A program made the position numbers and the translations under genes. 64,000 bases of DNA from Bispira polyomma (Eukaryota), in assembly GCA_965649765.1 (NCBI GenBank), contig OZ287752.1, positions 47,182,001 to 47,246,000 of the forward strand. Reading direction: 5' to 3'. Position 1 is the first letter of the stretch. Every line of letters begins with the position of its first letter. Below are positions 5,584 to 63,572 of the stretch, piece by piece. A model generated the notes under the pieces. It saw only the letters and a list, made by a program, of their open reading frames with translations, did no database searches and was not told the DNA's origin.

Positions 5584-7349
5584 CCTAACAGTACACAATA
5601 CAAGCCCCCCTAACAGTACACAATACAAACCCCCCTAACAATACACAATACAAACCCCCCTAACAATACACAATACAAACCCCCCTAACAGTACACAATA
5701 CAAACCCCCCTAACAGTACACAATACAAACCCCCCTAACAGTACACAATACAACCCCCTAACAGTACACAATACAAACCCCCCTAACAGTACACAATACA
5801 ACCCCCTAACAGTACACAATACAACCCCCTAACAGTACACAATACAACCCCCTAACAGTACACAATACAACCCCCTAACAGTACACAATACAAACACCTT
5901 AACAGTACACAATACAAACACCTTAACAGTACACAATACAAACACCTTAACAGTACACAATACAAACACCTTAACAGTACACAATACAACCCCCTAACAG
6001 TACACAATACAAACCCCCCTAACAGTACACAATACAACCCCCTAACAGTACACAATACAACCCCCTAACAGTACACAATACAAACACCTTAACAGTACAC
6101 AATACAAACACCTTAACAGTACACAATACAAACACCTTAACAGTACACAATACAAACACCTTAACAGTACATGATACAAACACCTTAACAGTACACAATA
6201 CAAACCCCCCTAACAGTACACAATACAAACCCCCCTAACAGCACACAATACAACCCCCTAACAGTACACAATACAAACCCCCCTAACAGTACACAATACA
6301 ACCCCCTAACAGTACACAATACAACCCCCTAACAGTATACAATACAACCCCCTAACAGTACACAATACAACCCCCTAACAGTACACAATACAAACACCTT
6401 AACAGTACACAATACAAACACCTTAACAGTACACAATACAAACACCTTAACAGTACACGATACAAACACCTTAACAGTACACGATACAAACACCATAACA
6501 GTACACGATACAAACACCTTAACAGTACACAATACAAACACCTTAACAGTACACAATACAAACACCTTAACAGTACACAATACAAACACCTTAACAGTAC
6601 ACGATACAAACACCTTAACAGTACACAATACAAACACCTTAACAGTACACAATACAAACACCTTAACAGTACACAATACAAACACCTTAACAGTACACAA
6701 TACAAACCCCCCTAACAGTACACAATACAACCCCCTAACAGTACACAATACAACCCCCTAACAGTACACAATACAACCCCCTAACAGTACACAATACAAC
6801 CCCCTAACAGTACACAATACAAACACCTTAACAGTACACAATACAAACACCTTAACAGTACACAATACAAACACCTTAACAGTACACAATACAAACACCT
6901 TAACAGTACATGATACAAACACCTTAACAGTACACAATACAAACCCCCCTAACAGTACACAATACAAACCCCCCTAACAGCACACAATACAACCCCCTAA
7001 CAGTACACAATACAAACCCCCCTAACAGTACACAATACAACCCCCTAACAGTACACAATACAAACACCTTAACAGTACACAATACAAACACCTTAACAGT
7101 ACACAATACAAACACCTTAACAGTACACAATACAACCCCCTAACAGTACACAATACAACCCCCTAACAGTACACAATACAAACCCCCCTAACAGTACACA
7201 ATACAACCCCCTAACAGTACACAATACAACCCCCTAACAGTACACAATACAAACACCTTAACAGTACACAATACAAACACCTTAACAGTACACAATACAA
7301 ACACCTTAACAGTACACAATACAAACACCTTAACAGTACATGATACAAC
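5584..7349. repeat. Minisatellite, 23-25-bp unit (taacagtacacaatacaa-acacct / -ccccc), about 74 units, with higher-order duplication
   Basis: Visible tandem periodicity with two or three unit variants. Rare variants recur 739 bp apart. Confidence 0.95.
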
Positions 7350-9640
7350 CCCCTCCCCCTCCCCCTTAACAATACCACCAGTGGAGTCTGATTAAAATAT
7401 GCTGCATGAAATTTTGTATTACAAGATATCTATTGTCTTTTGGGGTTGAATAATCCAATAAATAGTGTTATAATTGAAGTGTTGTATACCAGGTATGTTA
7501 ACAGTTTGTACATTGACCTGATTCCTGTTGGCTGTTTCTTATTGTAATACCACCCACAACACAAATTCTAAAACAAAACAACAATGTGGCCATGACATCC
7601 CAACTATTTTATTACACCACAATATCTAATCGTCAAACTTGTTTTTCCAGATCTTTTTGAACTCAGGATAACGTTGCCATTTCTCTCCAGGTTGAACATG
7701 GCGACAAGGGCTGTAAATATTTTCTGAAGCTCCTCCTGTCTGAATGGGATAGATATAAACAACAGTGAATACTAACAACAATTATCTATGACACTGCAGA
7801 TAAAGATATCATGGTGTAAAAAACTGTTTATAATGTATACTTTCTAACTGAATGTGGCAGAGCTAGATACACATTGCCGATAACTCTAGTTTTGTCAGTT
7901 TTATCAAAAATATACAATTCATTTGTCCACATTATTCACCGAAACCTTCATACACACTACTTGTTTCCTTAAAATTCAGTTTAAACAAAAATATTCAATT
8001 CAGTTATCTGTATTTTATACCAAACCTCCATGCGTTAAATGTATTCTTATTTTGTAAACTTGTAATCCCACGACTGATTCCAGTACAAAGAAGCCAGTTA
8101 CAAAGAGCTAATATCACCAAAAAATGCAGTTTGTTGCACAGTATTCATGTTTAGTATTTATATTACGTTCTAGTGAATGCAGAAATTCCTAAATAAAACG
8201 TTAACACGATAAATGCAATACTCCACTGGTGTGTTTCTGTCCTAATAGACGTGAACATTTGAGTTACATGGTGACATACCTTAAATGTTGTGATCTAGAG
8301 GAGTACATTGTAGTACTTCACTTGTCCCAATCTGTTAATCCATGCTGTTGTAGCTTTATTCCTCTGTAGTAGTTTCTAGAGTGTAAATCTCATGACTGTA
8401 ATATTCTAGTTATGGTTCAAGGTACAGGGGTATACTTGGACATATGATCCACACCTATCCAGGTATAGTAGGATAAGAAAATCTATTGCTTCAAAATGTA
8501 CATGTGTGGAGAATGTGCTATAAGAAGTGTGTGATAAGTTGTGGGCAGACAGAGGGTGTGCGAGTCACGTCCCTCAGAACTGTTCGAAGGTTTCAGTTAC
8601 CTGTGGCTGGTGTAGGAGTCTTTTACTGTTAACAAGTGAACATGGTGACTGTTTACAAGACCCTAGACACTTTGAACTATTACATGATATACCAGTTTTG
8701 TGGTAATGTGACTAGTCCCAGGCATTCCCTCAAACACCACCTGAAAATGTCAGCAAAAAATACTAAACAGAGTCAAACGCCTGGGTAAGTTCTATAAACT
8801 TACTTATTAAAGAAGCTGTTCTGTCTAGACTGTAGTCGTCAGTTTGTTGGGCACTTATTTTAGGTATAAGTCCCAAGCTAGAAAGTCTTGATCGTCCCTA
8901 TACAGCACAATTCTGACTGGCTGACCTAAAATGGTGTCAAACTTACACCATACACCACAGACTCCTTTAAATACTTCAACAACGTCACACGGTGGCCACC
9001 AATAAGAGTCTATAGAGTAAACATAAAAGGATGACGGCTGGCCAATCAGATCAGCTTTGACTCTAGTCAAAAGAGACCGCCAGTTAAAGTAGATCAGACA
9101 CAATTTCAAGTCAGTAAGGACTGTGTTAAAAGGTGTTGACAGTATTTTGATATATAACTAATGTTATTAACATGACCTTTAATGTGTGAATAAGTCTGGA
9201 TTAGTCATTATATGTGTAGGCTGATTAAAACAAGGAACAGTAGTTTAAACTTTATTTTTTAAAAAGTGAATAGGATATATCTGGTTAAAAGTTTCAAGTG
9301 AACTGCCACATATTAACTTTGGAATGTAATTGGATGTCATAAATAGTTTGTGTGTGAAAGGATTACTAAATCAGAGGATGAGACCTCCACAGACGTCTTA
9401 AGATACAAGCAGTGAGATGGGGAGTTGAAAAGGGTAACTTTACTGAGTTCTCATCGTGTGGGGTTCTCCCAATAAGCTCTAGCCCAGACATCGATATCTG
9501 TGTTGTAGAAGGTTTGTGTTTGATGGGATTTCCGACATGTGGTTAGTGTTTTAGTATACTCCCTATTTGTTTTGGAGTAGACTGCTGAACCCCCAGCAGT
9601 GGCTGTCCCCGGGTGTGAGGGCCCGGACTGTCACAGTGTG

Positions 9641-16793: not shown

Positions 16794-18304
16794 AGTGGCC
16801 CACATTTTAATGTAAGTGACACATTATCTGAAGAAACCGTTTAGAGCATTTTAGAAATTCAACTATGAATATATATCACTTACTTCTCCCACCAATAAAT
16901 CAAATCTATGACACTCATCTTATTTAATCACTTCACAAATCAGAATTATAGTGAAACAGATTTCACTGTTATCATTATCACTGTAAAATATATCAATCTG
17001 TCTATGGCTTTTTAAAGAGAAACTTGTTTTTGTTTAAATATCCTCAATGCTATTTAAGAACTTTTATGTTATACTTGAAAACGCAACATGGTAGTTTGGG
17101 GTTTGGATCATTTATACCTTTTATAAAAAGGTTTGATTTGATAATATATCATACTTCTTGAATATCTTTTACCAGCAAGGCCATGGGGTTATGCGTCTCT
17201 TACTTTTCTTTCTGACACCTAACTAAGGCATAGGATTGCAGCCTCGTGTCAGTAGAGCCATGTATCATGAAGAAATGATTGAAGTGAAAGGAAATAAATA
17301 ACTGAGTCTCACATAGCTTATAGCTTCAGGTAGAAACATTTACTGATGTGAACATATTCAAATTAAATGTGAAAGTATCTCATTTTAAATTACACCTTGT
17401 ACTGTTGCCCTGTGATACTCGCTTGAAAGGCTATAATTTCCACAGAATCTAAGAAGAAAGAACGTCTCTACTTATTTAGTAAATGAGCATTCATATCTTA
17501 AAATTATAAAATATAGCTTTTTGGACTTGTGTGCAACATATAAGGCTAAATATAATGACAACATTAGATAATTATGGACTTGTGGCACAACTTTCATTCA
17601 ATAAAAACACATATATCCTGTAATTTTAGCTACAAAACTGTGTATCTTTACTTGTCAAGGTGAATTAATTGAAAAAATAAATACAAATTTTTTTCGTGTA
17701 AAATCTGTCCAGATGAATACAAATGTAGTGTAAATCAGGACGGTTTGCAATGTTATTGTATATGGACCACCTTTGGCACACGATCTTCTTAAACCAGAAG
17801 AGTAGCCAAGCCTTCCACAGAAACCCCTGCACACTCTGTAACAACTAATGTAAATCTAGAGCTATGTTAGCAGTTTGATAGGTTTGTCCAAAGATGGATT
17901 AAGACAAGTCTTTAAGACTTCGTGGTATTACCAAAACAGTCATGCCAAGGCTTTTAAATTTAACAATATCCCAAAAACATTAACAGGCAAAGTATAGCCC
18001 TCCTTGTGTGTATTTATGTGTTCATAACTAGGTAGAAAGGGTTCACATTGACTGTAAGTACGTGTATACAAATAATATAATACTTCGTTCAGACACTAGT
18101 GTTAACTAGACCTCAGTTGTGACATTGTCCAAATCCAGTCACTTTTAGCTACAAACCTCTTTTGTTCAAGTGTGGGCTATGCCAAAGTGTTTGTTATCTA
18201 CCACTCCTGATATCTCCTAAGTAGTAGCTATTTAACTGGTGGTTTATGTGTACCCCAATGCGTGTACACATAGGGATGTACTCTCTATACTGTTTTGTAC
18301 ACAG

Positions 18305-18512
18305 GGGGTGGATGGTGTGATGGGCACTGACTTGAGTTCTGATAACATGGACAACCTGCATTCTACCCAGCCCCATCATGTTCAAAGACGAAGTGTTGGT
18401 CTGGGCCGTACAGTGACACTGACCAATGAGTGTACACACAGAGAGGTGCAGGTCATTGGCAGACGGATCAATGCCCTGGGTAAAGTGAGGAGGCCTAGAA
18501 GAAACCTACAAG
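18305..18512 (+). CDS. FGF8/17/18: FGF8/17/18-like gene, coding exon 3 (GVDG...HHVQRRSVGLGRTVTLTNECTHREVQVIGRRINALGKVRRPRRNLQ)
   Basis: Acceptor tgttttgtacacag and donor AAG|GTAAAC; 208 nt, phases 0/1. EVQVIGRRINALG aligns with FGF8 HVQVLANKRINAMA. Confidence 0.88.
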
Positions 18513-18589
18513 GTAAACCATATGCAGTTTACTTATACACCAACAAATAGTGTTATTGAGGCTTCAGTCTGGCTACTGTTCTAACCCCA

Positions 18590-20640
18590 CGACACTAAAT
18601 TCTCATGTGTGACCCCCTTGTGTGTCAATGTGTACATCAGTCAATCCCTGACACTAAAGTCTCATGTGTGACCCCCTTGTGTGTCAATGTGTATATCAGT
18701 TAATCCCTGACACTAATGTTATATGTATGACCCCCTTGTGTGTTAATGTGTACATCAGTCAATCCCTGACACTAATGTTATATGTATAACCCCCTTGTGT
18801 GTCAATGAGTACATCAGTCAATCCCTGACACTAAAGTCTCATGTGTAACCCCCTCGTGTGTCAATGTGTACATCAGTCAATCCCTGACACTAATGTTATA
18901 TGTATGACCCCCTTGTGTGTCAATGAGTACATCAGTCAATCCCTGACACTAAAGTCTTATGTGTAACCCCCTCGTGTGTTAATGTGTACATCAGTCAATC
19001 CCTGACACTAATGTTATATGTATGACCCCCTTGTGTGTTAATGTGTACATCAGTCAATCCCTGACACTAAAGTCTTATGTGTAAACCCCTTGAGTGTTAA
19101 TGTGTACATCAGTCAATCCCTGACACTAAAGTCTCATGTGTGACCCCCTTGTGTGTCAATGTGTACATCAGTCAATCCCTGACACTAATGTTATATGTAT
19201 GACCCCCTTGTGTGTTAATGTGTACATCAGTCAATCCCTGACACTAATGTTATATGTATAACCCCCTTGTGTGTCAATGAGTACATCAGTCAATCCCTGA
19301 CACTAAAGTCTCATGTGTGACCCCCTCGTGTGTCAATGTGTACATCAGTCAATCCCTGACACTAATGTTATATGTATGACCCCCTTGTGTGTCAATGAGT
19401 ACATCAGTCAATCCCTGACACTAAAGTCTCATGTGTGACCCCCTTATGTGTTAATGTGTACATCAGTCAATCCCTGACACTAATGTTATATGTATGACCC
19501 CCTTGTGTGTTAATGTGTACATCAGTCAATCCCTGACACTAATGTTATATGTATGACCCCCTTGTGTGTCAATGAGTACATCAGTCAATCCCTGACACTA
19601 AAGTCTCATGTGTCACCCCCTTGTGTGATAATGTGTACATCAGTCAATCCCTGACACTAATGTTATATGTATGACCCCCTTGTGTGTTAATGTGTACATC
19701 AGTCAATCCCTGACACTAATGTTATATGTATGACCCCCTTGTGTGTTAATGTGTACATCAGTCAATCCCTGACACTAAAGTCTTATGTGTAAACCCCTTG
19801 AGTGTTAATGTGTACATCAGTCAATCCCTGACACTAAAGTCTCATGTGTGACCCCCTTGTGTGTCAATGTGTACATCAGTCAATCCCTGACACTAATGTT
19901 ATATGTATGACCCCCTTGTGTGTTAATGTGTACATCAGTCAATCCCTGACACTAAAGTCTCATGTGTGACCCCCTCGTGTGTCAATGTGTACATCAGTCA
20001 ATCCCTGACACTAATGTTATATGTATGACCCCCTTGTGTGTCAATGAGTACATCAGTCAATCCCTGACACTAAAGTCTCATGTGTGACCCCCTCGTGTGT
20101 CAATGTGTACATCAGTCAATCCCTGACACTAATGTTATATGTATGACCCCCTTGTGTGTCAATGTGTACATCAATCAATCCCTGACACTAAAGTCTCATG
20201 TGTGACCCCCTCGTGTGTCAATGTGTACATCAGTCAATCCCTGACACTAATGTTATATGTATGACCCCCTTGTGTGTTAATGTGTACATCAGTCAATCCC
20301 TGACACTAATGGTATATGTATGACCCCCTTGTGTGTCAATGAGTACATCAGTCAATCCCTGACACTAAAGTCTCATGTGTCACCCCCTTGTGTGTTAATG
20401 TGTACATCAGTCAATCCCTGACACTAATGTTATATGTATGACCCCCTTGTGTGTTAATGTGTACATCAGTCAATCCCTGACACTAATGTTATATGTATAA
20501 CCCCCTTGTGTGTTAATGTGTACATCAGTCAATCCCTGACACTAAAGTCTTATGTATGACCCCCTCGTGTGTCAATGTGTACATCAGTCAATCCCTGACA
20601 CTAAAGTCTTATGTATGACCCCTTCGTGTGTCAATGTGTA
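18590..20640. repeat. 59-bp tandem array, about 35 units, two interspersed subtypes
   Basis: Period 59 (gaccccc at 18611, 18670, 18729). The subtypes are ctaaagtctcatgtgtg and ctaatgttatatgtatg. Confidence 0.95.
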
Positions 20641-23600
20641 AAGCAATCAATCTGAAACTGACAGACTTTTTGTGGTGTCCATTCGATAAGATCTTGTTTT
20701 GGAGAAGGTAATGCATTGAAGTCCAGTGTGTCAGTATTTGCATTGTACGTACCCGGTGCCACGACCTCTAATCTCCTTCATACCACATTGATCAAGGTAC
20801 CTTGGTGCACTTCATCCACAAATAAAACTGACACAAATATTTAGAAGTAAAACGTGTGCCTGATTTATTGCATTCTTTACTTGAAATCAAACCAAGCACT
20901 TGAGAAATCTGAGTCTATAGACTGCAAGCGCTGATAGTTAACATTCAACAAAAGCTAGAAGACTGCCTACATTTGACAGAAGTACATGTAGGCCTAACAG
21001 ATTAACCTCTGGTACAAGAAGACAAAAAACAAATGTTTATACCACTAACTACCAGGTTATATGTTGAACAAACACGTACTTCCTCACTCTCTAGTCGCTT
21101 GATCCTTACTATACATGTATAAGCTGATTTACAATTCTTCAGCCCTAGTAATTCTCTCCTAGTCCTGGCTGTTTTGTCTTGGGTTGCCTGTATGAAATGT
21201 AAATAGATTACTTCCAAGCTGACCTGTGTAGGTACAACAGGTGACAGTTTGTTAGTCTTTGTCACTGTGATCTCTATATACCCACACATACACGGTCTAT
21301 AGCCATCTACCACTAGGACTTTCTATGTAAAGTGTCAAAACATCTCAACATGTAAACATATAGGCATGGTCTTGTGAATGAGATGTGATATTACACATTC
21401 ATATTTTGTATTATATAATTTTGTATGACCCGTAAGCCCTGTTCCATTTTTTCCCAGTCCAGGTATTTTTGGATTACCTGTATAGTAAATGTGATGGGTT
21501 GTTAGTTTTTATAGGGTGGGATTATGTACCCCATCCGTTAGGCTCGTACAAATATCACTAATTTTAATCTTTACAGAATACTATTGTGTACGTCACATGT
21601 GCTATCTTTCAATCAGAGGTGGTGCTGAGAGGTAAAGCCTGTCTCAGTAGGGGGTTACCTACTAAAAAACAATAAGGGTGTGTATGCAGTTAGAATAAGT
21701 GCTGACATAGATCCTTGTTAGTCTGTCCTCACACACTTCTGTATGTCTACACTCCAATATGGCTTTGTTTGCGGCTCTTGCTATTCTACCAGTGATCCAG
21801 ATCCACTTCTAAAGTGAAGCAATCTTAGTGTGGTCCTGGTTCCTCATTGTCTTACAGTATCTGTGTAAACCACAATTAACCTCAAATACATGTGATAACC
21901 CCTCTACCTTTACAAGTCCATTGTACACGTGGGTTGGTAAATTAACTAGATGTCTTACTGTAGTTAATGTCTCGTGTTGTAAGACTATATACATGAAAGG
22001 CCAGGGGTTTGAAGACTGTGACCAAGTTGTTGGGCAGTGAGCTATGAATGAGAGCAAGCTGGCCTTAATGTGGCAGTGAGAGGACTTACTGCTATGTTTG
22101 TACTGCTGACACCAACATGAAAGGAGCCAACACAAGCCTCGTATTGTTTGGAAAAGGATAACTAAGTACTTCACTGCTTGTTTTCACACCTTGAAAATCC
22201 CTCAAGTACATACCGTAACATGGCTAATAGACACTTCAGTCGTCATCCGAGTACCAACTGCTTCCTCAAGTGGCGTCTCTTCTTCTCCCACTTTCAATGA
22301 GTAGTTTTACCTTAAAGCTGGTAAATAATACAGCCCCTCTAGGGTACAGACTGTCAATGGTGGCTGGTTACACCACTACTTTAAGACTTCCGTACAGAGA
22401 TTTCTGGCCCTAATACCGCCTGGTTAGTACTGTTTATACAGATATGCTACATGTCTGGTCGTTCAGAGAATGTGTATTGTATAGCATTCTAGTGCTGTAG
22501 TTAACAACGATACTCCAAACTATACTATTGACCACATTCAGATAAGACTAGTCAAAGTTCCACTCTCACATATAAATCATCCATGCATATGTAGTTAATA
22601 TCAGCTGGCCAGTCTTATACACAATGTCACGTTGAAGTCTTCTACACTCAACCTTGTGGCACAAATGGAAATCGATCTACCTGTTAGCACATCGATTAAT
22701 GACTGAATTCAAACAACTGTTGGGTTTAGTTAAATAAGATGGGCGCACCGTACACACTAAACAACCACATCAATATTATCTTGTGAATTACATACATCAT
22801 ATTTTTTTGGGATTGAAACCCCCAGATTGTATGTTCACCGTTCAGAGATGATTATAGATATTGAAGTGAAAGCTTTTCAAGAAGACATTGACCATATTTC
22901 GATGTTTTTCTTCCTAAAGTGGAAAACATTAAACTCTTATATTGTTGACATAATTTATCAAGTGTCCTCATGCTGGTGAAGTAATAACAAGAACAGGATA
23001 AAAAGCCCCCATGGGTAGACATATACACATTATCTGCTGACCTAATAATAGGCTAAGTTCTTAAATAGCTCAAAACAAATGACACAACGCACAGGTAGAT
23101 GTTTTTTACTGGTATTAGATGTTTTGACTGATATAAAATCATTTTAGGAATGTCAGAAAGTAAATGTAAAATCTTTACCTACATAGCGCGCATGACAAGC
23201 ATATCATACATGACATCAACTCAAACCATCCTAATTCATTACTAACGCATTTTTGTGCCAGTTCTATCCTCCAAATAACAAACTTACTATAAGTTCAATT
23301 GTGAAGCTCTATATCTCATTATAAGACTAGAGATTCTTATTAGTTCAAATGGCCCCCTAAGAAGAAGGATTCCTAACTTTTTAAATTATCATAAACAAAT
23401 TTGTTTCTCAATATTTTGAAACATATAATTCACCCATACATTAAGTGTTAAAATAAATCAAATAAAGGGACAGATCAATGCCACTGCAAACAAGGGTTAG
23501 ATCTTTGGGCTAATCAATGAGGAGGGATGGGGCAAAAAACATCAATTCTCTGAGGAAAAAACTAAAAGATACTCACAAAAAGATCAGTTTGTGTCTGATA

Positions 23601-24100
23601 TAAATATATAAAATCAATTCAAATTATAATCCATATGTGAAAGTTAAATTCGAAGTATAAATGATGATCCAGTTTGCATTTTGTTTCTACTGTAGCTTCC
23701 ATTTCACTTTAAATCCATTCGGTCATTTGTGTCAAAATTTCCTCAGAGAAAATTCTGAATCTCTAATATAGAATATTTAGCACTGGTTATGTGAAAGAGA
23801 TTGTACTAGGTGTGGCAATGTATGTCACTGGTTGTATTCCAGAACAAAATATGACAGCATTCACATTGGGTTTGTTGTTTTATCTGACGTCATACCTCCC
23901 CAAGTTCCAACATTTAGGCCTTCATACAAACATACACGTTTTTTGACATTCCACAGAGTCCGGAGACCTAGCTTGATGCACCTGCAGTCTCTAAGTTGGT
24001 CTGTATGCTTAAAGATAAAAGTGATGGGCAGAAGTAGCTTATCTCTTGATTGACGTCTATTGTTATAAAGTTTAGGCAGAGCCATATGTATTAGACTGGT

Positions 24101-24532
24101 TGCCATTGTTAGCCTGTGTGAGGCGCTCTGTGTCATTGTTAGCCTTGTCAAGCGCTCTAAAAACATGCTCCGTCCACTGTATGCCATTGTTAGCCTGTGT
24201 GGGGCACTATAGAGAATGCTCTGTCCACTATATGCCATTGTTAGGCTGTGTGAGGCGCTCTAGGGAATGCTCTGTTCACTCTATGCCATTATTAGCCTGT
24301 GTCAAGAGCTCTAAAAACATGCTCCGTCCACTGTATGCCATTGTTAGCCTGTGTGAGGCGCTCTAGAGAATGCTCCGTCCACTGTATGCCATTGTTAGCC
24401 TGTGTGAGGCGCTCTAGAGAATGGTCTGTCCACTGTATGCCATTGTTAGCCTGTGTGAGGCGCTCTAGAGAATGGTCTGTCCACTATATGCCATTGTTAG
24501 CCTGTGTGAGGCGCTCTAGAGAATGCTCTGTC
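24101..24532. repeat. 51-bp tandem array, about 8 units
   Basis: atgccattgttagcctgtgtgaggcgctctagagaatgctccgtccactgt at 24335, 24386, 24437 and 24488. Confidence 0.92.
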
Positions 24533-26166
24533 GACAGCTGTGGTCAAGCTGTTGTTGAGTGGAGACCCAGTGACTACCAGATGCTGCCCTACTTCTGTAG
24601 CAGCTCTCACACCTCGTGTCTCCCACTACTCTGACACTACACACTAAGTGGGATTCTCTTTGATCCATTCATCTTCACTGTCTGCCATTTTGTCAGTTTT
24701 TGAGTAGCCATGGGGTGTACACATCATATTTAAGGTTTAGAGATAGTTATTTAACCTTACTTAATTTTTCCGAACACTCCATTTTGAATTCAGCTGGGCA
24801 TTAAAGCTACTAAAATGTTGACGTTTGTATTAAAATGTTGACATTTGATGTGGACACTGTTATGATTGCAACATTTTATAAGAAAATTTTTTAATTTTTC
24901 CAGACAAAAAATAAATTATATCTTAGCTTTTCGCATTTGTTGCATTCTGACTGCAATTCACGGCCCCTAATGGGATTTAGCTTTTGTTTTATTCTAAAAC
25001 AATCAAACATTGTCATGTGTTTTGATGTTTACATTCTCGATTAACCAGTACAATAAAACAGAAAGGATCGTAAACTATGCAGAAAACAGTGCTTTCCCAG
25101 ACAGAGGTCAAGAGCTGTCAAATGTCCCAGTAATTCAACACAGTAATAACCAAACAAAACCTAAGAGGCCAGACTGGAATTTTTTAAATGCGTTAAATAT
25201 TTCAGGCCAGCACAAAAATTGTAGCAGTTATGGAATAATCTTAATGCAGCATATCTTACTGTATTGAACCAAACTTAACGATGAATGACTCTACAATGAC
25301 TGCTGTTGTAATTAAGCAGCTTTTGAAATGTACAAGTTTCAGCATTACGTTGTGCAATCTATTACTATTCATATCATCGATTGTACCATTTATCATAAAT
25401 GCTCGAGTGGATAAAGTTTTATTATTTTTTGCCAATTCTCTTAAGCACACAATAAAAAGAGTCTTGTAAGTTGTATTACATCTAAAATGTCTAGTGGTTA
25501 ATGTCTGAACAAAGTTATTAATTTGATTGCTGTAAACACACATGATTCTTGACAGAATGTAGTTTTTTAGTGTGTATAGGATGGCTGTTTGGCTGTAAGG
25601 CATGTTCCCGTGGGTTTCAGGTGTCAGAGAGAGTGTTGTGTGAAGCCATACCAACTCGTTACCGCACATTGAAACCTGACTGCCATCAACACTTTTGGCC
25701 TCACCATATCATGCCATCTTCTTCTTATGAATTCATTCCTTCTAAGATGATTTGTTTGTTTACATATTCCCAATCTAATTTTTGCTGCCAAAAAATGTTC
25801 AGTTGATCTTCAGCATTTGATTTGTAACTTATAAATAACAATTATGATGGATAAAAACTAAATTCCATAACATAAAGACCTTATGTAGATAAGGCTACGA
25901 AATGTCAGTGAGTCACATGGACTCTCGGGTACAGTAAAATACTGTGTTAAGGAACTAGGTATGTAAAGTGGGTCTCGACATTTAGTGTAAGAGATCCATT
26001 ACTAAATGTCAAGAATACCCAACAAGGTGTATGGTGTCATTAGCAAAGAACGCTTCTTCTATATAAGACATGTCATGTCGATCCTTTGGTCATAAACCTA
26101 TACCATGATGGTTGAACACCCTTGTATTATTATTACTATAACCATGCTTTTTTATTGTAATTGCAG

Positions 26167-26273
26167 CTCAGCTTTTAATGACTTCACAGGGAGACTTTGG
26201 AAAAGTGACAATTCAAAGTGATCGCTCCAAAGAATATATCTGTTTCAGCTCCCAGGGAAAACTAACAACACGG
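26167..26273 (+). CDS. FGF8/17/18: FGF8/17/18-like gene, coding exon 4 (AQLLMTSQGDFGKVTIQSDRSKEYICFSSQGKLTTR)
   Basis: Acceptor ttgtaattgcag and donor CGG|GTAAGT; 107 nt, phases 1/0. It has the same length and phases as the FGF8 exon encoding [36 protein letters not shown]. It is absent from the ORF track. Confidence 0.93.
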
Positions 26274-27324
26274 GTAAGTCTACACAGAGTCTACCAATAA
26301 GTCTACACAGAGTCTTCTTGGTATGGTGTACAGACATGGAGTCTTAGTCTGGGATTCCTTCAATCGATCCTAACGTCGGCCGATTTATTAAAATTCTAGC
26401 CAAACTGACATCAGCTGATGTAGGGCTTCCTTACATCCGATATCTACGATGTACAATGGTGTGAGAATTTTTTGGTAATATTAAATAATGGCAGATAAAA
26501 ATATGGTGAAAGGAAGCCTAGGCTAAGGGTTTCCTCTTTTTTGACAACACTGGCCTTTGTAATACCCACATAGGTAAGAAGTAGCTAGATCTAGTGTTCA
26601 TGTATTTACAATACACAGTTCAACAAACCAGTACAGCTGGTACCTTCATGATGGTACCTATCTCAGCTAGCACTGCTGACGGTTCCAGGTCTGTCACCAT
26701 ACACTAACAATTTACTCTGCGATATCTAACACACAGAGAAACAAACCTTGCTTGTCTTTTCTTTGTAAAGTAGCCTAAAATTTCAGTTTGCAATGTAATG
26801 TGTCATCAAGAAAACTATGCAGTGTACTGTAATAGTGTGTGCACCTAATAACAAGTAATTTAGCTTCACACAAGCAACAAAAGAATGTGGTAATAGAACC
26901 AGTTAAGATCCAGTGAATGGCTCTGTCTGGTAGAGTAATAAAACACCATGCTAAATGACATACTTGACTGCAAAGGTTAAGTTACGGAAATGAATGTAAA
27001 ACGATAAACAATTAGAAAATACATGTGGTATATCAAAAGGGTTATTAGCTTTATTTCAATAAATTTATGAAATGCAATAGGTCAAAAGATTGAATTCCAT
27101 TTTTTCGTTTGATCAATAAACTAATCATTATTACGTAAATCTGTTGTTGAAAAAGAAGATTACATGTTGAGATAAAACCTAGATTTGAGATGGCAAGGTT
27201 CAATGGCAAGACCTAACATTGGTTGGTTAGTTTCATGCTTATCTTTTTATTGGCAATCGAAGTTAATGTGCTTTTTCTAAGTGTCTCTCTGTCCTTTAGC
27301 CTATCTGACAATAGTCTTCGCAAG

Positions 27325-31339: not shown

Positions 31340-32380
31340 CGGTGATCTGTAAGGTCAGTGATATGTCAGATATATGAGGTCAGTAATATGTCAGATGTGT
31401 AAGGTCAGTGATATGTCAGATGGGTAAGGTCAGTGATATGTCAGATGTGTAAGGTCAGTGATTTGTCTGATGTGTCAGATCGGTGATATGTCAGATCAGT
31501 GATATGCCAGATGTGTCAAATCAGTGATATGCCAGATCAGTGATATGTCAGATAGGGGAGGTCGGATGTGTAAAGTCAGTGATATGTCAGATGTGTAAGG
31601 TCAGTGATATGTCTAATGTGTGAGATCAGTGATATGTCAGATCAGTGATATGCCAGATCAGTGATATGTCAGATAGGGGAGATCAGATGTGTAAAGTCAG
31701 TGATATGTCAGATGTGTAAGGTCAGTGATATGTCTAATGTGTGAGATCAGTGATATGTCAGATTGGGGAGGTCAGTGATATGTCAGATAGGGGAGGTCAG
31801 TGATATGTCAGATAGGTAAGGGCAGTGATATGTCAGATGGGTAAGGTCAATGATATGTCTAATGTGTGAGATCAGTCATATGTCAGGTGTGTGAGGTCAG
31901 TGATATGTCAGATGTGTAAGCTCAATGATATGTCCGATGTGTGAGGTCAGTGATATGTTAGATGGGTGAGGTCAGTAATATGTCAGATGGGTGAGGTCAG
32001 TGATATGTCAGGTGTGTGAGGTCAGTGAAATGTCAGATGGGTGAGGCGAATGATATGTTAGATGGGTGAAGTCAGTGATATGTTAGATGGGTGAGGTCAG
32101 TGATTTGTCAGATATCTGAGGGTAGTGATGAATGAAGTCAGTGATGAGTTAGCTCAGTGATGTGTCACGTGTTATTTCAGAAGTGTAAGATCAGTGATGT
32201 ATATTGATGCCAGTAATGTATCAGGTTAGTGGTATGTATTGATGTCAGTAATGTATCAAGTTACTAATGTGTATTCATGTCAGTAATGTATCAGGTTACT
32301 GGTGTGTATTGATGTCAGTAATATATCAGGTCAGTGATGTGCTGATGTCAGTAGTGTATCAGGTCAGTTATGTGTCAATG
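31340..32380. repeat. Degenerate minisatellite, about 25-bp unit (aaggtcagtgatatgtcagatgtgt), grading into an about 35-bp variant
   Basis: Period 25 at 31401 and 31426. The core gtcagtgatatgtcagat recurs throughout. Confidence 0.9.
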
Positions 32381-34724: not shown

Positions 34725-35855
34725 GTGTCCATGTCACACTGTCTCTCAAAGTCCTTATCTTATCCCATGTCACACTGTCCCTCAATGTCCCTATCTTATC
34801 CCGTCATACTGGTAACTCTGTCCGTCCATGTCCCTATCTTATCCCATGCCATACTTGTAACCCTCTCCCTTAATGTCCCTATCTTATCCCATGTCATACT
34901 GGTAACTCTGTTCCTAAATGTTCTTATCTTATCCCATGTCATACTGGTAATTCTGTCCCCCAATGTCCATATCTTATCCCGTCATACAGGTAACTCTGTC
35001 CCTCAATGTCCCTATCTTATCCCATGTCATACTGTCTCGCAATGTCCTTATCTTATCCCATGTCATACTGGTAACTTCTGTCCCTCAATGTCCCTATCTT
35101 ATCCCGTCATACTGGTAACTCTGTCCCTCAATGTCCCTATCTTATCCCATGTCATACTGGTAACTTCTGTCCCTCAATGTCCCTATCTTATCCCGTCATA
35201 CTGGTAACTCTGTCCCTCCATGTCCCTATCTTATCCCATGTCATACTGGTAACTTCTGTCCCTCAATGTCCCTATCTTATCCCGTCATACTGGTAACTCT
35301 GTCCCTCCATGTCCCTATCTTATCCCGTCATACTGGTAACTCTGTCCCTCCATGTCCCTATCTTATCCCATGTCATACTGGTAACTTCTGTCCCTCAATG
35401 TCCCTATCTTATCCCGTCATACTGGTAACTCTGTCCCTCCATGTCCCTATCTTATCCCATGTCATACTGGTAACTTCTGTCCCTCAATGTCCCTATCTTA
35501 TCCCATGTCATATTGGTACCTTCTGTCCCTCAATGTCCCTATCTTATCCCATGTCATACTGGTTACATTGTCCCTTAATATCCCTATCTTATCCCATGCC
35601 ATACTGGTAACCCTCTCCCCCAATGTCCCTATCTTATCCCATATCATACTGGTAACTCTGTTCCTCCATGTCCCTATCTTATCCCATGTCATACTGTCTC
35701 TCAATCTCCCTATCTTATCCCATGTCATACTGTCTCTCAATGTCCCTATCTTATCCCGTGTCATACTGTCTCTCAATGTCCCTATGTTATCCCATGTCAT
35801 ACTGTCTCTTAATGTCCCTATATTATCCCATGCCATACTGGTAACCCTCTCCCTC
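34725..35855. repeat. Minisatellite, 43-46-bp unit with 36-bp deletion variants
   Basis: Core gtccctcaatgtccctatcttatcccatgtcatactggtaactct. It explains the repetitive ORFs at 34725-35903. Confidence 0.93.
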
Positions 35856-38379
35856 ACATACACTCTCACACAGGCTGTGCGGAGGGTCTCTCAGTCCACT
35901 TAAAGCTCCAATAGATTGAGCTATCTAGCGATGATCTGAACAAATCTGTGCACACATTCTCATTTGCCAAGTGCGAAAGCCGACGGTGATATATGACCGC
36001 GTCTCTTTGATATGTTTTAAAACGCCTGGGGAGATCTAGGTTTGCTATAATCTTTACTCTTGGAACCTTGTTGTTGTAAAACACCGATTAGAAAAAGCTC
36101 CTTTCCAATTTTAAAAGAATCAAACGTGAGGATGTGGCCTCCAAAAGCGTGAGGAGCCTGGTTAGTGGTTTGAAGAGCCTGATGAGAATTAAGGTATTTA
36201 TTGGATAGAGATCTGGTATGATGTCTGACAATTAGGTGACATCCCCCCTGGGTAGGGTATAGCCATATAGCCACCAATAGCTACACCTACTGGAGAGAGA
36301 CTATTGAGATAGTCATTTACTATGTAAACTCATGGCTGACTACTTACTTCTCAACACAATGAGACTACATTAAATAGCTGTTGTGCTAAAAATCTGGCTT
36401 TTTGAACTCAATTAATGCAAAGATAATTTAATAAAGAACTTTAGATTGCACATTTTCATCAAATAGTCGTTCCTCAAATACACCATTTTATTGGCCAAAA
36501 TGATTGCACTGTTTGAGTGAAAGTTCATAAAAACACCCTCTGTGACAGGATACATACAAATGACTGGTGCATATTTAAAATACCTCAGAAGACATTCATT
36601 CCCAGTTTTTATATGCAGTCACTTTATAGAAGTGCAAAAGGTGACTTTAAATTTATTTTAAATAAAGTATTAAGGCCATAATTTAGAGTGACTCTGTAAC
36701 TTGTCACTCTGTGAACCGTGATGTGCATTTTAGAGCCCCATTATACAGAGGGGCTGCCTGCACTGGGTAGAAGGTAGAATGATGTGATGTCCTTTAGTGT
36801 GACAACCACTCGAAACATGGCACAGAATTTATCAGCTTGCTATTGTGTGGCAGTCCATATACTGGTGTAAGGTTGTCCGGCTCTAAATCTCCAGTGGGCC
36901 TTCACCTGTGTAAACTTTCAACTAGAAGCACTCAGCTGTTTACCACATGTTGTTAATTGTATGTCCAGAGTGCTAATCACTGACTAGTACCTCTACACAG
37001 CAAAATCCTCTGATAATTCAAATATTAAAACTATGGAATAAATTATACTGTAATATATATAAAATATATACATATAAATGGAGTTGTTTAGAAAGATAAG
37101 TTTCACTTTAGACGAAAAATAAATAAATAATAGGTTATATTTGGCCCATTTTATAGATATTATATTTGAATGATATTGGACCCAATTTACGTTTTCATAA
37201 CACAACTTAATGTAGTATAGATTTTGTACTATATTTTCCCTATGTTCCCTTTGTTGATGTTGGAGTACAAAAAGTATAAGTTTAAGAGGAACACAAATAT
37301 AGCCAACTTATCCTGAACTGCTGTCAAAGAACTTCAGGTAAGTGTGTAAAGTATTTCCTGGCAGTTTATCTGTGGAGTCTCAGTTTACCTTACAAGGAGT
37401 GCTTCCAGCCGGGATATACATACTAGGGCAAGACGGGGCCTTTGACAAGGTGTGCCAACTATCTGCGGCCACTGAGTCTAATTAAATGGTTTCTGTATTT
37501 ATATCAAGACTTTCAATGGTTATGTGTAACCCGATACCTGCTTCAATCTTGATTTGAATACTACTTCTGTTCAATACAACGGGTGCTTACAGATGATTGA
37601 TTGTAAGCTTGCAGTTTGTAGTCATTCCTGACTGACAGCCCAGTGAATGTAGTCTGTCTCAGATATTGAGAGATTCACAGTAACTGTGTTATTCAGGTAG
37701 AACAGCACCAATCCATGTATACAGGCAACCATGTATTCTCTCATTCAGTGAAATCCATAAAAAACCATTAAATGAGATCCTCTTCTAGAGAGGAATAATA
37801 CAGCATCTACATAAGTGACGGTCTTTGCAAGAAGCTTTTATTAATGTCTTTTTAGGCGATGAATTTTTCATTGTGATGCAACTTGATCTGTCCCATACAT
37901 CAAACAGTAGATAAGGTGCCCCTGACAGGGCCAGGATTTATGTGGGGAGATGTTTGTGCTGCTGTCCCCCTTGTCACCACTAGAGATGGGTTTTTTCTCT
38001 CTGTTAGCTGAGACCTGTGATAAACTGGTACTGACTTACTCCACCGCTTCTAGCGTGAACTGATCACTATCTTTTGTAGTACACTGGCCGCCACAACCTG
38101 TGCCCCACCTCGGGTGTAATACACAGCCCCACAACGTGTAGGGAACCTCTTCTTACGTGTATTAAGTGTATTATAAATTGCCCCTCAAGACAAGTGTCAA
38201 GAATACAAATTTCTCAGAATATTTGACACCATACACCACTAATAAATGTCAGTGGTTTATCAGGCTGGCATTGCAGAAAATATACTCTCAATAACGATTA
38301 AGCTTATTGTTTAGGTCATTAAATTATAAAATTACACGTCTTACATTTGGTAGCAAAACATGTCCACCTAAAGCAAGCC

Positions 38380-39425
38380 ATACATTCACCATGTATAAGG
38401 GCTGCCCATGTAATATGTGCATTCACCATGTCTACGGAATGTCAATGTAACATGTGCATTCACTAGTATACAGACTGTCAAAGTAACATGTGCATTCACC
38501 AAGTATACAGACTGTCAATGTAACATGTGCATTCACCATGTACACAGACTGTCAATGTAACATGTGCATTCACCATGTATACGGACTGCCAATGTATACA
38601 GACTGCTAATGTAACATGTGCATTCACCATGTATACAGACTTTAAAAGTAACTTGTGCATTCACCATGTATACAAACTGTCAATGTAACATGTGCATTCA
38701 CCATGTATACAGACTGTCAATGTAACATGTGCATTCACCATGTATACAGACTGCCGATGTAACATGTGCATTCACCATGTATACAGACTGTCAAAGTAAC
38801 ATGTGCATTCACCATGTATACGGACTGTCCATGTAACATGTGCATTCACCATGTATACAGACTGCCTGGATCAATATTGTTAAAGGTAGCACATGCATTC
38901 ACCATGTATATGAACTGCCTGGTTCTATACTGTTAAATGTAACACGTCCATTCACCATGTATAAGGACTGTCAATGTAACATGTGCATTCACCATGTATA
39001 ATGACTGCCTGTATCTATACGGTTAAATGTAACACATGCATTCACAATGTACACGGGCTGTCAATGTCACACATGTATTCAGCATTAATACGGACTGTCT
39101 GGATCTATACTGTTAATTGTAACACATGCATTCACCATGTATATGAACTGCCTGTATCTATAGGTTAAATGTAACACATGCATTCACAATGTACACGTGC
39201 TGTCAATGTCACACATGTATTCAGCATTAATACGGACTGCCTGGATCTATACTGTTAATTGTAACACATGCATTCACCATGTATACGGACTGCCTGGATC
39301 TATACTGTTAATTGTAACACATGCATTCACCATGTATATGGACTGCCTGGATCTATACTGTTAAATCTGGCACATGTATTTACCATGTATACAGGCTGCC
39401 TGAATCTACAATGTTAAATGTAACA
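38380..39425. repeat. Minisatellite, 37-bp unit (gtaacatgtgcattcaccatgtatacagactgtcaat) changing to a longer about 52-bp unit
   Basis: Visible tandem periodicity. The 3' units carry an extra gcctggatctatactgttaa segment. Confidence 0.92.
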
Positions 39426-40617
39426 AGCTACTAAGAAAATACTACGCCGTTCTAATGATAGGATGTGAAATCCCCAGTTGAGAAATTCAAGACCCCATTA
39501 GGTCACAAATATACTCTCCCCCAGCTATTCATAGGTAATTACAGGTAGGAATCCACTCTAAACTGGCTTCTATTCAGCCTTGTAAGTTCTGCCATTGGAT
39601 AGGTTATCATTGAATCAGTGACAAGAAAAAGGCAGAAACATTTTAAGTAGAATGTGTAACTGAAGAAGGCTTGAGTAGGAAATTAACTGGGAGGGGGTCC
39701 CATAAATAGACATTGTTGACTTTCTGAAAGGATTAACCCACAACAGTACACCCCTTGTGGCCATCTTTATAAGGGAACTCTTTTTGTACACCTCCTATAT
39801 CAATACGCTAAATGTTCTCATGTTATTGTACAGCAATTTGAGATGTTGATTCTTCCTCAATGTTTTAAATGTGTAAGTGGAACTTTAAAGTAGTTATTTT
39901 ATTTTATAAACACTCAGATAATAGCAGTTGGGGATATCACATATTTAGTTAAGCACTGTCTGGGGTTTTTTGAAGAGGCGATGTGAACTAACCCTGTGAC
40001 CTTTGCATTCAATAGTAGACGTGTTTGATGTTCTATATTAATATAGTGTAATTACTGTCACATATTTAATACCATGAAAAGAGGCTGACCCCAATGTTAA
40101 AATAATATGGCTAAACTTTAGAAATTTTGTAATAAAGTAGAATAATCTATGGCTGTGTGAGGTAGATAATAGGAACCTGCAGTTGTTACCTGACTCAGTG
40201 GTCATGACCTCAAGGGGTTGTCAACCTAAATCAGGAAGTGTGTAAACCACTTTTTACAGATATATAGACCTCCTACATTAAGTCTTTGAAATGGCTTTAA
40301 AATGTAAAGACTGTAACTCTACTCTGGCATTCTAGTATGAGATGTCCTAACCATGTATTTGCTGGAACTGAGTTCTACCAAAACATGATAGGTAGACATT
40401 GTGTATTGCTCTTAGATATCTCTATTCGAATTACATTACCTAAGTAAGGAGATTTCTCAGAACATGGAAAATGCATTATATCTTTTATTTTGGTATATGA
40501 GTGGAATCCCTGTAAAAAACTGAATTGAATTTCATATAACATTTCTTTATGATACCTTGAAAACAGATATTCCTTAATTAAAGTAATATTAATACGATAC
40601 TTTGCCTGTATTTTCAG

Positions 40618-41049
40618 ACCACCAAAACAGGAGGGGACTGCATATTTAAAGAAGTAGCTGAGCATGGAAAATACAAATACCAGTCTGTGTCACACCCTAG
40701 TTGGTACTTGGGTTTTAAACGCAGTGGGAAGAAACTCAAGGGTAACCTTTATATTAAGAAACCTCGACTAGGCACATGCTATTTCTTCACTAAACCACCT
40801 ATACGTGGTAGTAAGAGTGGGCGAGACCCCTACGCCCCAGATGTAGACTTTGACTTGTATGAACCACACAGCCGAGGTAGAGGGGGACATCATCGTCCCC
40901 GCGGTACCCCTCAACACCCCCACAGACACCCCCGATATGAGGGCTACTCACCAAACTCCAACAAGAAGTATGCACCCAATATAGACTTGAGCAAACTCAC
41001 CTTACCCAGACTACGACATGGACACTTAAGGAGAAGAGCGAAAAGTTGA
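40618..41049 (+). CDS. FGF8/17/18: FGF8/17/18-like gene, terminal coding exon 5 (TTKTGGDCIFKEVAEHGKYKYQSVSHPSWYLGFKRSGKKLKG...RRRAKS*)
   Basis: Acceptor cctgtattttcag, phase 0, in frame with ORF 40687-41049. DCIFKE and WYLGFKRSGKKLKG align with FGF8 DCVFTE and WYMAFTRKGRPRKG. TGA stop at 41047-41049. Confidence 0.93.
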   Translation, partial: TTKTGGDCIFKEVAEHGKYKYQSVSHPSWYLGFKRSGKKLKGNLYIKKPRLGTCYFFTKPPIRGSKSGRDPYAPDVDFDLYEPHSRGRGGHHRPRGTPQHPHRHPRYEGYSPNSNKKYAPNIDLSKLTLPRLRHGHLRRRAKS

Positions 41050-48274: not shown

Positions 48275-49561
48275 CTAGTTTCTATGAGTGACACAGAAGT
48301 GTTCTGGAGTAGAACTAGCTGTTGTCAGTAAAGCATAGGTGGCCTGTACGGGGACACTAGCATGGCGTCCTTTTACATCTCTGGTTCCAGCTTTAAATAC
48401 AACTCTCCTGTTGACACTCTGATCAGACCTTGGCTTACAAAACATCCTCAGTAATATAATCCTAAACTTCCTACCAAGTAGACAGTAAACAACAAAGTTA
48501 GAACAGCTGTTGATGGTTAGACATAGATTACTGAAGACATTCACGTAGAGCAGAGATTCTTTGGGGTAGTGAATTGAACCCTTGAAGAATGTGTGCAGTG
48601 AGGTCCAGGCCCGCAGGAAGAAATCCGGCAACTCACACAGGATAAACACCAAAACCACAACGACAAGGGTGCGGGTGTGTTGCTGGCGATCTCGTCTCCC
48701 CGCACTACCTTGGGAGCCTTTACTAGAACAGCGATTATTTAACATACTCGATTCCTGGATGGCTTGCATCAACTTGGTGTTAAAGAAGGCCAAGAGAGAG
48801 AGGGGGATAAAAAACCTGAGGATGAAGAACAAGAATGTCTTGTAGACCACAAAGTAGATCTTATCCTCCCTCAGCTGGGTTTTCTCGACACAGGGCATGG
48901 TCATATTGGTGTATGGATCCTCCATCACCACTACCTTCCTTTCAAAAAATCTGGGTAGATTGTAGAGAAAGGAGACCAGATAGATGAGGCCCACCATCTT
49001 CCTCATACGGGACAGGGTGCTGTATTGCTGGGATTGCAGAGGTTTACAGATGGCAATATACCTGTCTGCAGTGAGGACCAGGACAAGCCATACAGTGCAG
49101 GTTTGGGCGGCGGATGCACATGGCCATACAAATGGCTCCATGTATGGCCAGTGGAGGCTGAGGGAGGGGATCCAGTCTGTACACTGCTCCATCGTGTTAA
49201 CAGTCTGAAAGAAGAGGCAGGTAGTTAAGTAGAGTGTATCAGCAATAGCCACCATCTGTAGAAGAAAGGCTGTTGTTCTCTTCATTGTTCTGTCTCTGCG
49301 GAGTACCAGGATAGAAAGTGTATTACCGAGTATCCCTGCCAAACACAGGCACAGAACCAGGTAGACTTCCACCAGCACCTTGTACACAGCAAACCCACCA
49401 TTCACTTTCTCACGCTTACAGCCTGTCCTAGAAGCGGTCATGTTTACCTGACTAGAATTCAGCAGTGAGGCGTTTGTGGCTTGTTCTAGACACATCTCTA
49501 TACTCATATTTAAAGATGACATAATGTCTGCTGATCTGATTTGTGGCTTTTCTGAGTGCAT
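48275..49561 (-). CDS. Rhodopsin-class peptide GPCR, FMRFamide-receptor-like (orphan), uninterrupted CDS, 428 aa
   Basis: Seven hydrophobic segments with GILGNTLS (TM1), AIADTLYL (TM2), AQTCTVWLVLVLTADRYIAICKPL (TM3), YNLPRFFE (TM4), FFIPL (TM5), CELP (TM6) and INSCSNFVVYC (TM7). NFxxY and NxPRFFE are typical of the FMRFaR-related group. The N-terminus has four N-glycosylation sequons. Confidence 0.93.
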   Translation of the reverse strand: MHSEKPQIRSADIMSSLNMSIEMCLEQATNASLLNSSQVNMTASRTGCKREKVNGGFAVYKVLVEVYLVLCLCLAGILGNTLSILVLRRDRTMKRTTAFLLQMVAIADTLYLTTCLFFQTVNTMEQCTDWIPSLSLHWPYMEPFVWPCASAAQTCTVWLVLVLTADRYIAICKPLQSQQYSTLSRMRKMVGLIYLVSFLYNLPRFFERKVVVMEDPYTNMTMPCVEKTQLREDKIYFVVYKTFLFFILRFFIPLSLLAFFNTKLMQAIQESSMLNNRCSSKGSQGSAGRRDRQQHTRTLVVVVLVFILCELPDFFLRAWTSLHTFFKGSIHYPKESLLYVNVFSNLCLTINSCSNFVVYCLLGRKFRIILLRMFCKPRSDQSVNRRVVFKAGTRDVKGRHASVPVQATYALLTTASSTPEHFCVTHRN

Positions 49562-61925: not shown

Positions 61926-62269
61926 TCCTTCCTATCATGTTAAGCAGTAGCTATTTTCGACAAATGCCTCTATGGTTTCAACAATGAGCCTGTGTAGATC
62001 AAGCAGACACAAGTAGAGGGTAATTGTGTTTTGTATTTGGTGGTGTTTGGCTGTTGTCCCTACACAGTTTACAAATAGGCCGATAGCCTGGCGTCCGCCT
62101 CTGCACCGACCAATGTGATTAGTGAGCAGACCTGCTCCATTAGAAAGAACAAAGACAACCCAGTTTGCACAAATTGTAGGACAATAAACTCCACCAGCTA
62201 GCTGTCTTAAATAGTAGTGGCAATGTAGTCATATAGAGGGTCTCAGTGGGAAGTCCAGTATTTTAGGTA

Positions 62270-63572
62270 AAAGTTAGTGCCACTCCACAGTGTTCACTTG
62301 ATAAAGTACATATATAAAAGAGTTAGTTCAACTGCACTGTGTTCACTTGATAAGGTATATGTATTAAAGAGTTAGTTCCACTCCACTGTGTACACTTGAC
62401 AAAGTACATGTATTAAAGAGTTAGTTCCACTCCACTGTGTTCACTTGACAAAGTACATGTATTAAAGAGTTAGTTCCACTGCACTGTGTTCACTTGATAA
62501 GGTATATGTATTAAAGAGTTAGTTTCACTCCACTGTGTACACTTGACAAAGTACATGTATTAAAGAGTTAGTTCCACTCCACTGTGTACACTTGACAAAG
62601 TACATGTATTAAAGAGTTAGTTCTACTGCACTGTGTTCACTTGATAAAGTACATATATAAAAGAGTTAGTTCAACTGCACTGTGTTCACTTGATAAGGTA
62701 CATGTATTAAAGAGTTAGTTCCACTCCACTGTGTACACTTGACAAAGTACATGTATTAAAGAGTTAGTTCCACTCCACTGTGTACACTTGATAAAGTACA
62801 TGTTTTAAAGAGTTAGTTCTATTGCACTGTGTTCACTTGATAAAGTACATGTATTAAAGAGTTAGTTCTACTGCACTGTGTTCACTTGATAAGGTACATG
62901 TATTAAAGAGTTAGTTTCACTCCACTGTGTACACTTGACAAAGTACATGTATTAAAAAGTTAGTTCCACTCCACTGTGTACACTTGACAAAGTACATGTA
63001 TTAAAGAGTTAGTTCCACTGCACTGTGTTCACTTGACAAAGTACATGTATTAAAGAGTTAGTTCCACTGCACTGTGTTCACTTGATAAGGTACATGTATT
63101 AAAGAGTTAGTTTCACTCCACTGTGTACACTTGACAAAGTACATGTATTAAAGAGTTAGTTCCACTCCACTGTGTACACTTGACAAAGTACATGTATTAA
63201 AGAGTTAGTTCTACTGCACTGTGTTCACTTGATAAAGTACATGTATTAAAGAGTTAGTTCTACTGCACTGTGTTCACTTGATAAAGTACATGTATTAAAG
63301 AGTTAGTTCTACTGCACTGTGTTCACTTGATAAGGTACATGTATTAAAGAGTTAGTTTCACTCCACTGTGTACACTTGACAAAGTACATGTATTAAAGAG
63401 TTAGTTCCACTCCACTGTGTACACTTGACAAAGTACATGTATTAAAGAGTTAGTTCCACTGCACTGTGTTCACTTGATAAAGTACATGTATTAAAGAGTT
63501 AGTTCCACTGCACTGTGTTCACTTGATAAAGTACATGTATTAAAGAGTTAGTTCCACCCACAATGTACACTT
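62270..63572. repeat. 49-bp tandem array, about 26 units
   Basis: aaagagttagttccactccactgtgtacacttgacaaagtacatgtatt, with the period seen at 62321, 62370 and 62419. Confidence 0.95.

Follow-up and report, generated by a model that had tools for sequence, protein, structure and literature searches.

What a duplicated motif does at the C-terminal end of a secreted growth factor is the question raised by a locus in the Bispira polyomma genome. We analysed a stretch of 64,000 nt (GenBank assembly GCA_965649765.1, contig OZ287752.1, positions 47,182,001 to 47,246,000 of the forward strand), which we call the window and number from its first letter. An open frame at 40582-41049 contains a match to the Pfam FGF family above its cut-off, and its translation ends in a tail of 84 amino acids (40795-41046) followed by a TGA stop codon. 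An initial annotation, made from the letters alone, called this region an FGF C-terminal tail with a duplicated motif, and proposed that the tail might act in tethering, range control or the release of small peptides.

The assignment to an FGF tail is upheld by the Pfam match, by a ranking of PDB sequences and by a match to a Lineus longissimus protein, which together specify an FGF8/17/18 tail. The last coding exon begins at a phase-0 acceptor, and its first part (40618..40794, + strand) encodes the end of the FGF beta-trefoil core (PF00167, E = 5.6e-6, over the cut-off). A profile built from relatives of this exon placed FGF18 (PDB 4cjm, E = 5.4e-10) and FGF8b (PDB 2fdb, E = 1.4e-9) at the top of 114 PDB sequences, matching in the core only, with the next PDB match at 7e-6. 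The named clusters among the ten that we looked up were all FGF8/17/18-like or uncharacterised, and the named relatives comprise one nemertean and three gastropods. In the ESM Atlas, the last exon retrieved FGF clusters only, and the tail retrieved nothing above 0.75. By its PDB ranking and named relatives, the gene is classed as an FGF8/17/18 ligand. Its core resembles those of 4cjm, 2fdb and Aplysia FGF8 (XP_005093476); it differs from the subfamily in its 84-aa two-copy tail, since the PDB matches end at the core. The Lineus FGF17/18-like protein (XP_064631508) has one motif copy versus two in the window.

Two further coding exons lie upstream, in a splice model drawn from sequence and homology with inferred exon boundaries. 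The start of the core is encoded at 18305..18512 (+), where both boundaries are inferred and alternative donors follow 18479 and 18484. This exon matches the Lineus FGF18-like protein in BLASTP (11/35 identical, E = 9e-05), has no Pfam match, and opens with a VDG word like the one that follows the hydrophobic leader of two relatives. The middle exon (26167..26273, +, 107 nt), whose acceptor was placed by homology and has an alternative at 26190, matches the Lineus protein at 43% and Pfam FGF at E = 1.4e-4, with 22.3 bits against a cut-off of 24. Splicing the three exons together preserves the frame and introduces no stop. Among four loose upstream candidates, none was convincing as a signal-peptide exon. 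Three read runs over 18000-26500 behave as DNA and contain no splice joints, and are therefore uninformative on splicing. A single candidate for another copy of the tail in this genome was scored and did not prove to be one.

Several other features of this and other loci can be recorded. Minisatellite arrays with periods of 22-59 and larger (3022-7354, 18591-20652, 31344-32113, 34775-35856, 38383-39425 and 62268-63572) sit in the introns and flanks of the FGF gene. A single-exon rhodopsin-type GPCR (48275-49561, - strand; 7tm_1 E = 1.7e-29, Srw E = 1.4e-14) lies about 7 kb downstream of the gene and is convergent with it. A second FGF gene, L002 (G000:C1:53410303-53413545, - strand), has a 163-aa basic tail without the motif studied here; a DPL word like the Klotho-binding motif occurs in it, and in 217 of 20000 shuffled versions. 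At a distance of 30 kb, L001 contains a middle exon of FGF type that possibly belongs to another FGF gene.

Within the tail, copy 1 (DPYAPDVDF, 40825..40851, +) sits where most single-copy relatives have their one copy. It is followed by a His/Arg/Pro-rich linker that is predicted to be disordered (40852..40947, +; 6 His in 32 residues) and that keeps its length and histidine content among relatives but not its sequence. Copy 2 and the block upstream of it (SPNSNKKYAPNIDLSKL, 40948..40998, +) give the best match to the single-copy consensus and are predicted to form a capped short helix. After it come an [IL]RH word, the basic end RRRAKS and the stop codon (41011..41049, +). The words that drew attention to the tail, YAPDVDF at 40831-40851 and YAPNIDL at 40969-40989, are both in place, with the two copies 138 nt (46 codons) apart, and YEPH, RGRGG, the His/Pro/Arg run, YSPN and LRRRAKS are likewise all found. 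The conserved blocks are wider than first drawn, reading DP[YH]APx[V][DN][FL] and [SA]PNxNx[KQ][YW]APx[IL], and YSPN is part of the second.

The two copies begin with three synonymous codon pairs (TAC/TAT, GCC/GCA, CCA/CCC) and continue with D/N, V/I, D/D and F/L. The initial annotation took the synonymous differences as a sign of constraint on the protein. This argument fails as circular, because the repeat was picked for its amino-acid identity, and the repeat also holds three replacements; the differences show that the copies are old and nothing more. The copies have no DNA similarity beyond about 30 nt, and none of 50 Tandem Repeats Finder rows overlaps the tail. The best BLOSUM62 self-match of the tail is the His/Pro/Arg run and not the motif (914 of 5000 shuffles reach its score); a composition-adjusted score selects the motif pair, with 44 of 2000 shuffles reaching it. 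A regular-expression shuffle test of the window tail (2/20000) was post hoc and is left out of the evidence. Judged within the window, the repeat is weak to marginal, and its real support comes from comparison with relatives.

We searched 1.84 billion representative sequences with phmmer and obtained 20 matches; the query contained the tail and so favoured motif carriers, and the counts are not family frequencies. Two copies are kept in five of the 20 matches (P0002, P0003, P0007, P0020 and P0021) and one copy in six (P0004, P0005, which is the Lineus protein, P0009, P0010, P0011 and P0013), with partial or no motif matches in the remaining nine. Two profile searches, in which 10 of 3113 and 4 of 3080 candidates passed, added five new proteins, and a word-index search, made with the last exon to find longer relatives, passed none of 252 candidates. 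P0037 and P0038, from one of these profile searches, are further single-copy relatives and bring their number to eight. Protein-level conservation of the motif, as the initial annotation had supposed, is thus seen among relatives, with two copies in five and one copy in eight. In the counts that follow, P0031 replaces P0021, which belongs to the same 90% cluster, and the window's own tail makes the sixth two-copy tail. The two-copy relatives are known only as last-exon fragments, two of which (P0007 and P0020) have no Pfam FGF match.

The two-copy relatives fall on three separate branches and have copy-to-copy spacings of 46, 36, 44, 44 and 46, versus 46 in the window. Copy 1 is identical to the window's at 9, 7, 7, 7 and 9 of 10 positions. 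The closest relative matches the window at 49/59 positions in the core, 9/10 in copy 1, 18/33 in the linker and 8/10 in copy 2; the corresponding values in the four distant relatives are 19-28/59 (one core being partial), 7-9/10, 5-8/33 and 2-5/10. The window's linker aligns only with that of the closest relative (the distant ones score 14-28 against it), and histidine content across the two-copy tails is 3-6 per 22-32 linker residues. [YW]AP is present in both copies in all six tails, [SA]PNxN precedes copy 2 in five of six, and copy 1 begins 12-15 residues past the core in every case. Copy 1 is without the S-K-L half of the motif, and copy 2 is without the D-L-S-K half in P0003, P0007 and P0031. 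Toward the end of the tail, the [IL]RH word and an RR close to the terminus each occur in five of six. The net charge of the whole tail ranges from -6 to +15, and a plain polycation is therefore not what is conserved.

To relate the two copies to the single one, we built a test profile from the eight single-copy tails only. This profile ranks both window copies first and second (0/1000 shuffles each), and places both copies as the top two segments in P0002, P0003 and P0020 as well (0-1/1000 shuffles). It is weaker in P0007 (31 and 13 of 1000 shuffles), and in P0031 the second-best segment is not copy 2. Because copy 2 is half lost in P0003, P0007 and P0031, and the profile misses it in P0031 and is weak in P0007, the copies are by sequence not equivalent sites everywhere. 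Copy 2 of the window outscores copy 1 against the single-copy consensus, and copy 1 holds the usual position of the single copy. The core-to-motif distance in single-copy tails is 15-17 in five and 20 and 30 in two, a variation expected of a linear motif.

Of the other tails, nine scored no better than shuffles at their top segment, and a further two did not have the length for scoring. The motif is missing in many FGF8-type matches, including Aplysia, Gigantopelta, P0008, P0016, P0017, P0040 and the one vertebrate-type FGF8 tail tested (489 of 1000 shuffles). In a tree of the core (57 columns), one side of a branch consists of the six rows with two copies, with support of 61/86 across all 25 rows, or 77/76 with two long rows left out. 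This tree allows a single duplication behind the two-copy tails, and the comparison as a whole suggests that the motif was present in the tail of an ancestral spiralian ligand and was later duplicated, probably once.

Some tails have words of their own. P0039, P0041 and P0050 contain GPxGV[DN]FC, then IRH and basic residues at the end. These words may represent a diverged version of the motif from some other group of animals, but the tails fail against the ungapped single-copy profile, with P0039 and P0041 reached by 546 and 932 of 1000 shuffles. This does not support homology, and we do not count these tails or the FEF-like words of vertebrates as homologues of the motif. In the tails of P0008 and P0016, a run rich in His, the word YSP and a K-W word follow one another as in the block before copy 2, without AP-x-V-D-F. 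Two weak Pfam matches, to UPF0561 (E = 0.049, P0007) and DUF7145 (E = 0.19, P0020), were treated as chance.

AlphaFold models suggest how the motif might be built. The model of the full-length Lineus FGF18-like protein (mean pLDDT 75.7) is confident in the core and has a single helix in the tail (211-218), which starts right after V-D and has a pLDDT of 69, versus 55 and 54 in the flanking segments. The last exon of the window modelled on its own is of low confidence (mean pLDDT 53), with small rises at the two copies (63 and 69) and three helical residues at copy 2. We infer that the Asp after V caps the helix. The tail is predicted to be disordered, with aromatic-[AG]-P-x-[VI]-[DN]-[FL]-x-K-[LI] forming a turn and an Asp/Asn-capped short helix. 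The models would fit motifs that fold on binding, and none shows confident packing on the core.

Whether the tail works as part of the ligand or as a source of peptides can be judged from its processing sites. On the peptide-release reading of the initial annotation, convertases would cut at R, G-R, KK and RRR to give amidated or Tyr-sulfated peptides. An Arg does lie within two residues before DP in four of the six two-copy tails (as RR in two of the four), R-G-R is common to the window and its closest relative, and two window tyrosines have three acidic neighbours within five residues. Against this, KK precedes copy 2 in one tail of six, the linker has a G[KR] amidation signal in two, and the DLYE tyrosine occurs in one. 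The copy-2 aromatic is Trp instead of Tyr in four tails, the copy-1 aromatic is His in one, and the copy-2 Tyr of the window has a single acidic neighbour. No tail has RxxR between the core and copy 1, and there is no conserved furin site; nor are there conserved neuropeptide-type dibasic sites flanking the repeats (KK 1/6, RR before copy 1 2/6). It is the ends of the predicted peptides that lack conservation. Because the interior of the motif is kept with any aromatic, and the cut sites and tyrosine are not, this pattern argues against amidated or sulfated peptides, whose release we consider very improbable.

The parallel drawn with Drosophila Pyramus and Thisbe holds loosely. These FGF8-type ligands undergo cleavage, and the tail of Thisbe can restrict activity, according to passages of one study (PMC2923630). 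At 748 and 766 aa, however, they have tails several times longer that are glycosylated or membrane-like and contain multibasic sites, whereas the window has no conserved furin site after the core.

We conclude that the motif is very probably conserved and functional, and that the tail probably acts while attached to the growth factor. Our preferred reading, to which we give a probability of roughly 45%, is that the attached, disordered tail is a two-site tether that docks on a partner protein. One old duplication of about 45 codons would have given rise to the two copies. The motif would dock on an extracellular protein, be it the ectodomain of an FGFR, a co-receptor or a component of the matrix, and having it twice would raise avidity or link two partners. 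The histidine-rich linker and the basic end might bind heparan sulfate in a pH- or metal-sensitive manner. The ligand would then be held close to its source or on the receptor complex, limiting or shaping the range of its signal. In favour of this reading, copy 1 is kept at 7-9 of 10 positions versus 5-8 of 33 in the linker, and the spacing is kept at 36-46.

There are three further explanations. The capped helix could instead pack on its own or a second FGF core and mask the receptor or heparan-sulfate face, much as N- and C-terminal segments mask faces in FGF9/20 dimers. That copy 1 follows the core by 12-15 residues in each of the six two-copy tails, and that a predicted amphipathic helix has raised pLDDT, would suit such a latch, but the Lineus helix reaches a pLDDT of only 69 versus 83-95 across most of the core, three of five models fall below 60 overall, the motif distance ranges over 15-30, and one intramolecular site needs no second copy 46 residues away; we consider it unlikely. 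A signal read in the secretory pathway, where a cargo receptor or chaperone would bind the motif and route or retain the ligand before release, is quite unlikely: it leaves the kept spacing and histidine content unexplained, and the tail matches no Pfam family at E <= 5, even though a short aromatic-Pro-acidic-hydrophobic motif in a disordered tail has the right character and processing and tails affect the handling of Drosophila FGFs in parts of two reports (PMC2923630; PMC6504889). Finally, the second copy of one functional motif might simply be decaying, with no two-site function. The loss of the C-terminal half of copy 2 in three of six tails, and of the S-K-L half of copy 1, is what erosion would produce, yet [YW]AP persists in both copies in 6/6 and [SA]PNxN before copy 2 in 5/6, albeit with distant linkers that score only 14-28 against the window's, and we find this account improbable.

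For the two-site tether, the closest analogy is FGF23, whose tail likewise has a pair of related short motifs: its repeats R1 (180-205) and R2 (212-239) each bind Klotho and contain DPL motifs, as set out in sections of PMC11696049. Copy 1 of the window also opens with D-P-aromatic, as does FGF19 at D198-P199-F200 (described in part of PMC6056499). The Klotho sites of FGF19/21/23 differ in belonging to another subfamily, and the window keeps a basic core. The Klotho motif D-P-[LF]-x-[L] is absent from both copies, as copy 1 (DPYAP) has no Leu two places on and copy 2 has no DP; DP is also missing from most single-copy forms. Klotho-type GH1 partners lack the catalytic glutamates. In this genome, NEP is present in six of six GH1 acid/base exons and TENG in five of six nucleophile exons, with one unmatched, and no catalytically dead GH1 was seen among the domains examined (48 candidates scored; a divergent gene could escape). 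Nematode Klotho homologues act genetically with EGL-17, according to PMC2984606. It would be a long shot that the spiralian FGF8/17/18 tail motif binds a dedicated protein co-receptor, in the manner of endocrine FGFs with Klotho, and that its doubling in one lineage made the ligand bivalent, so that a paracrine FGF subfamily converged on the arrangement seen in FGF23. Two tandem GH1 pairs with intact catalytic motifs lie on G000:C8 at about 35.37-35.40 Mb and 66.79-66.83 Mb (L018-L032), and the L032 frame closes with hydrophobic residues, a possible membrane anchor.

The linker has an analogy of its own in histidine-rich glycoprotein, whose His/Pro-rich segment has Zn- or pH-dependent charge and binds heparan sulfate; more generally, His-rich regions alter ligand binding with Zn or pH (both in portions of PMC5372734). 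The window linker differs in having no GHHPH tandem array, its histidines being enriched but unarrayed, and the analogy implies no homology.

The suggestion that this tail module was uncharacterised agrees with our literature search, which found no report of the motif in a corpus that leaves out most subscription journals. The term "C-terminal" occurs 0 times in the main texts of PMC8224027, PMC3420111, PMC8180254 and PMC13591910, whose supplementary alignments could show the motif, and the available passages of PMC4826393 contain nothing on it. A conserved tail motif that is doubled in one FGF8/17/18 group is thus apparently undescribed. FGF8/17/18 ligands are tied to spiralian mesoderm development and annelid regeneration in sections of published work (PMC8180254; PMC8224027), whose main texts, like that of a review of the family, are silent on the C-terminus. 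A conserved ten-residue motif with natural one- and two-copy versions offers a direct handle on ligand range and co-receptor use. If the motif only adds matrix affinity, it would be a modest lineage-specific refinement; if its partner is a protein co-receptor, this would be unexpected for a paracrine FGF.
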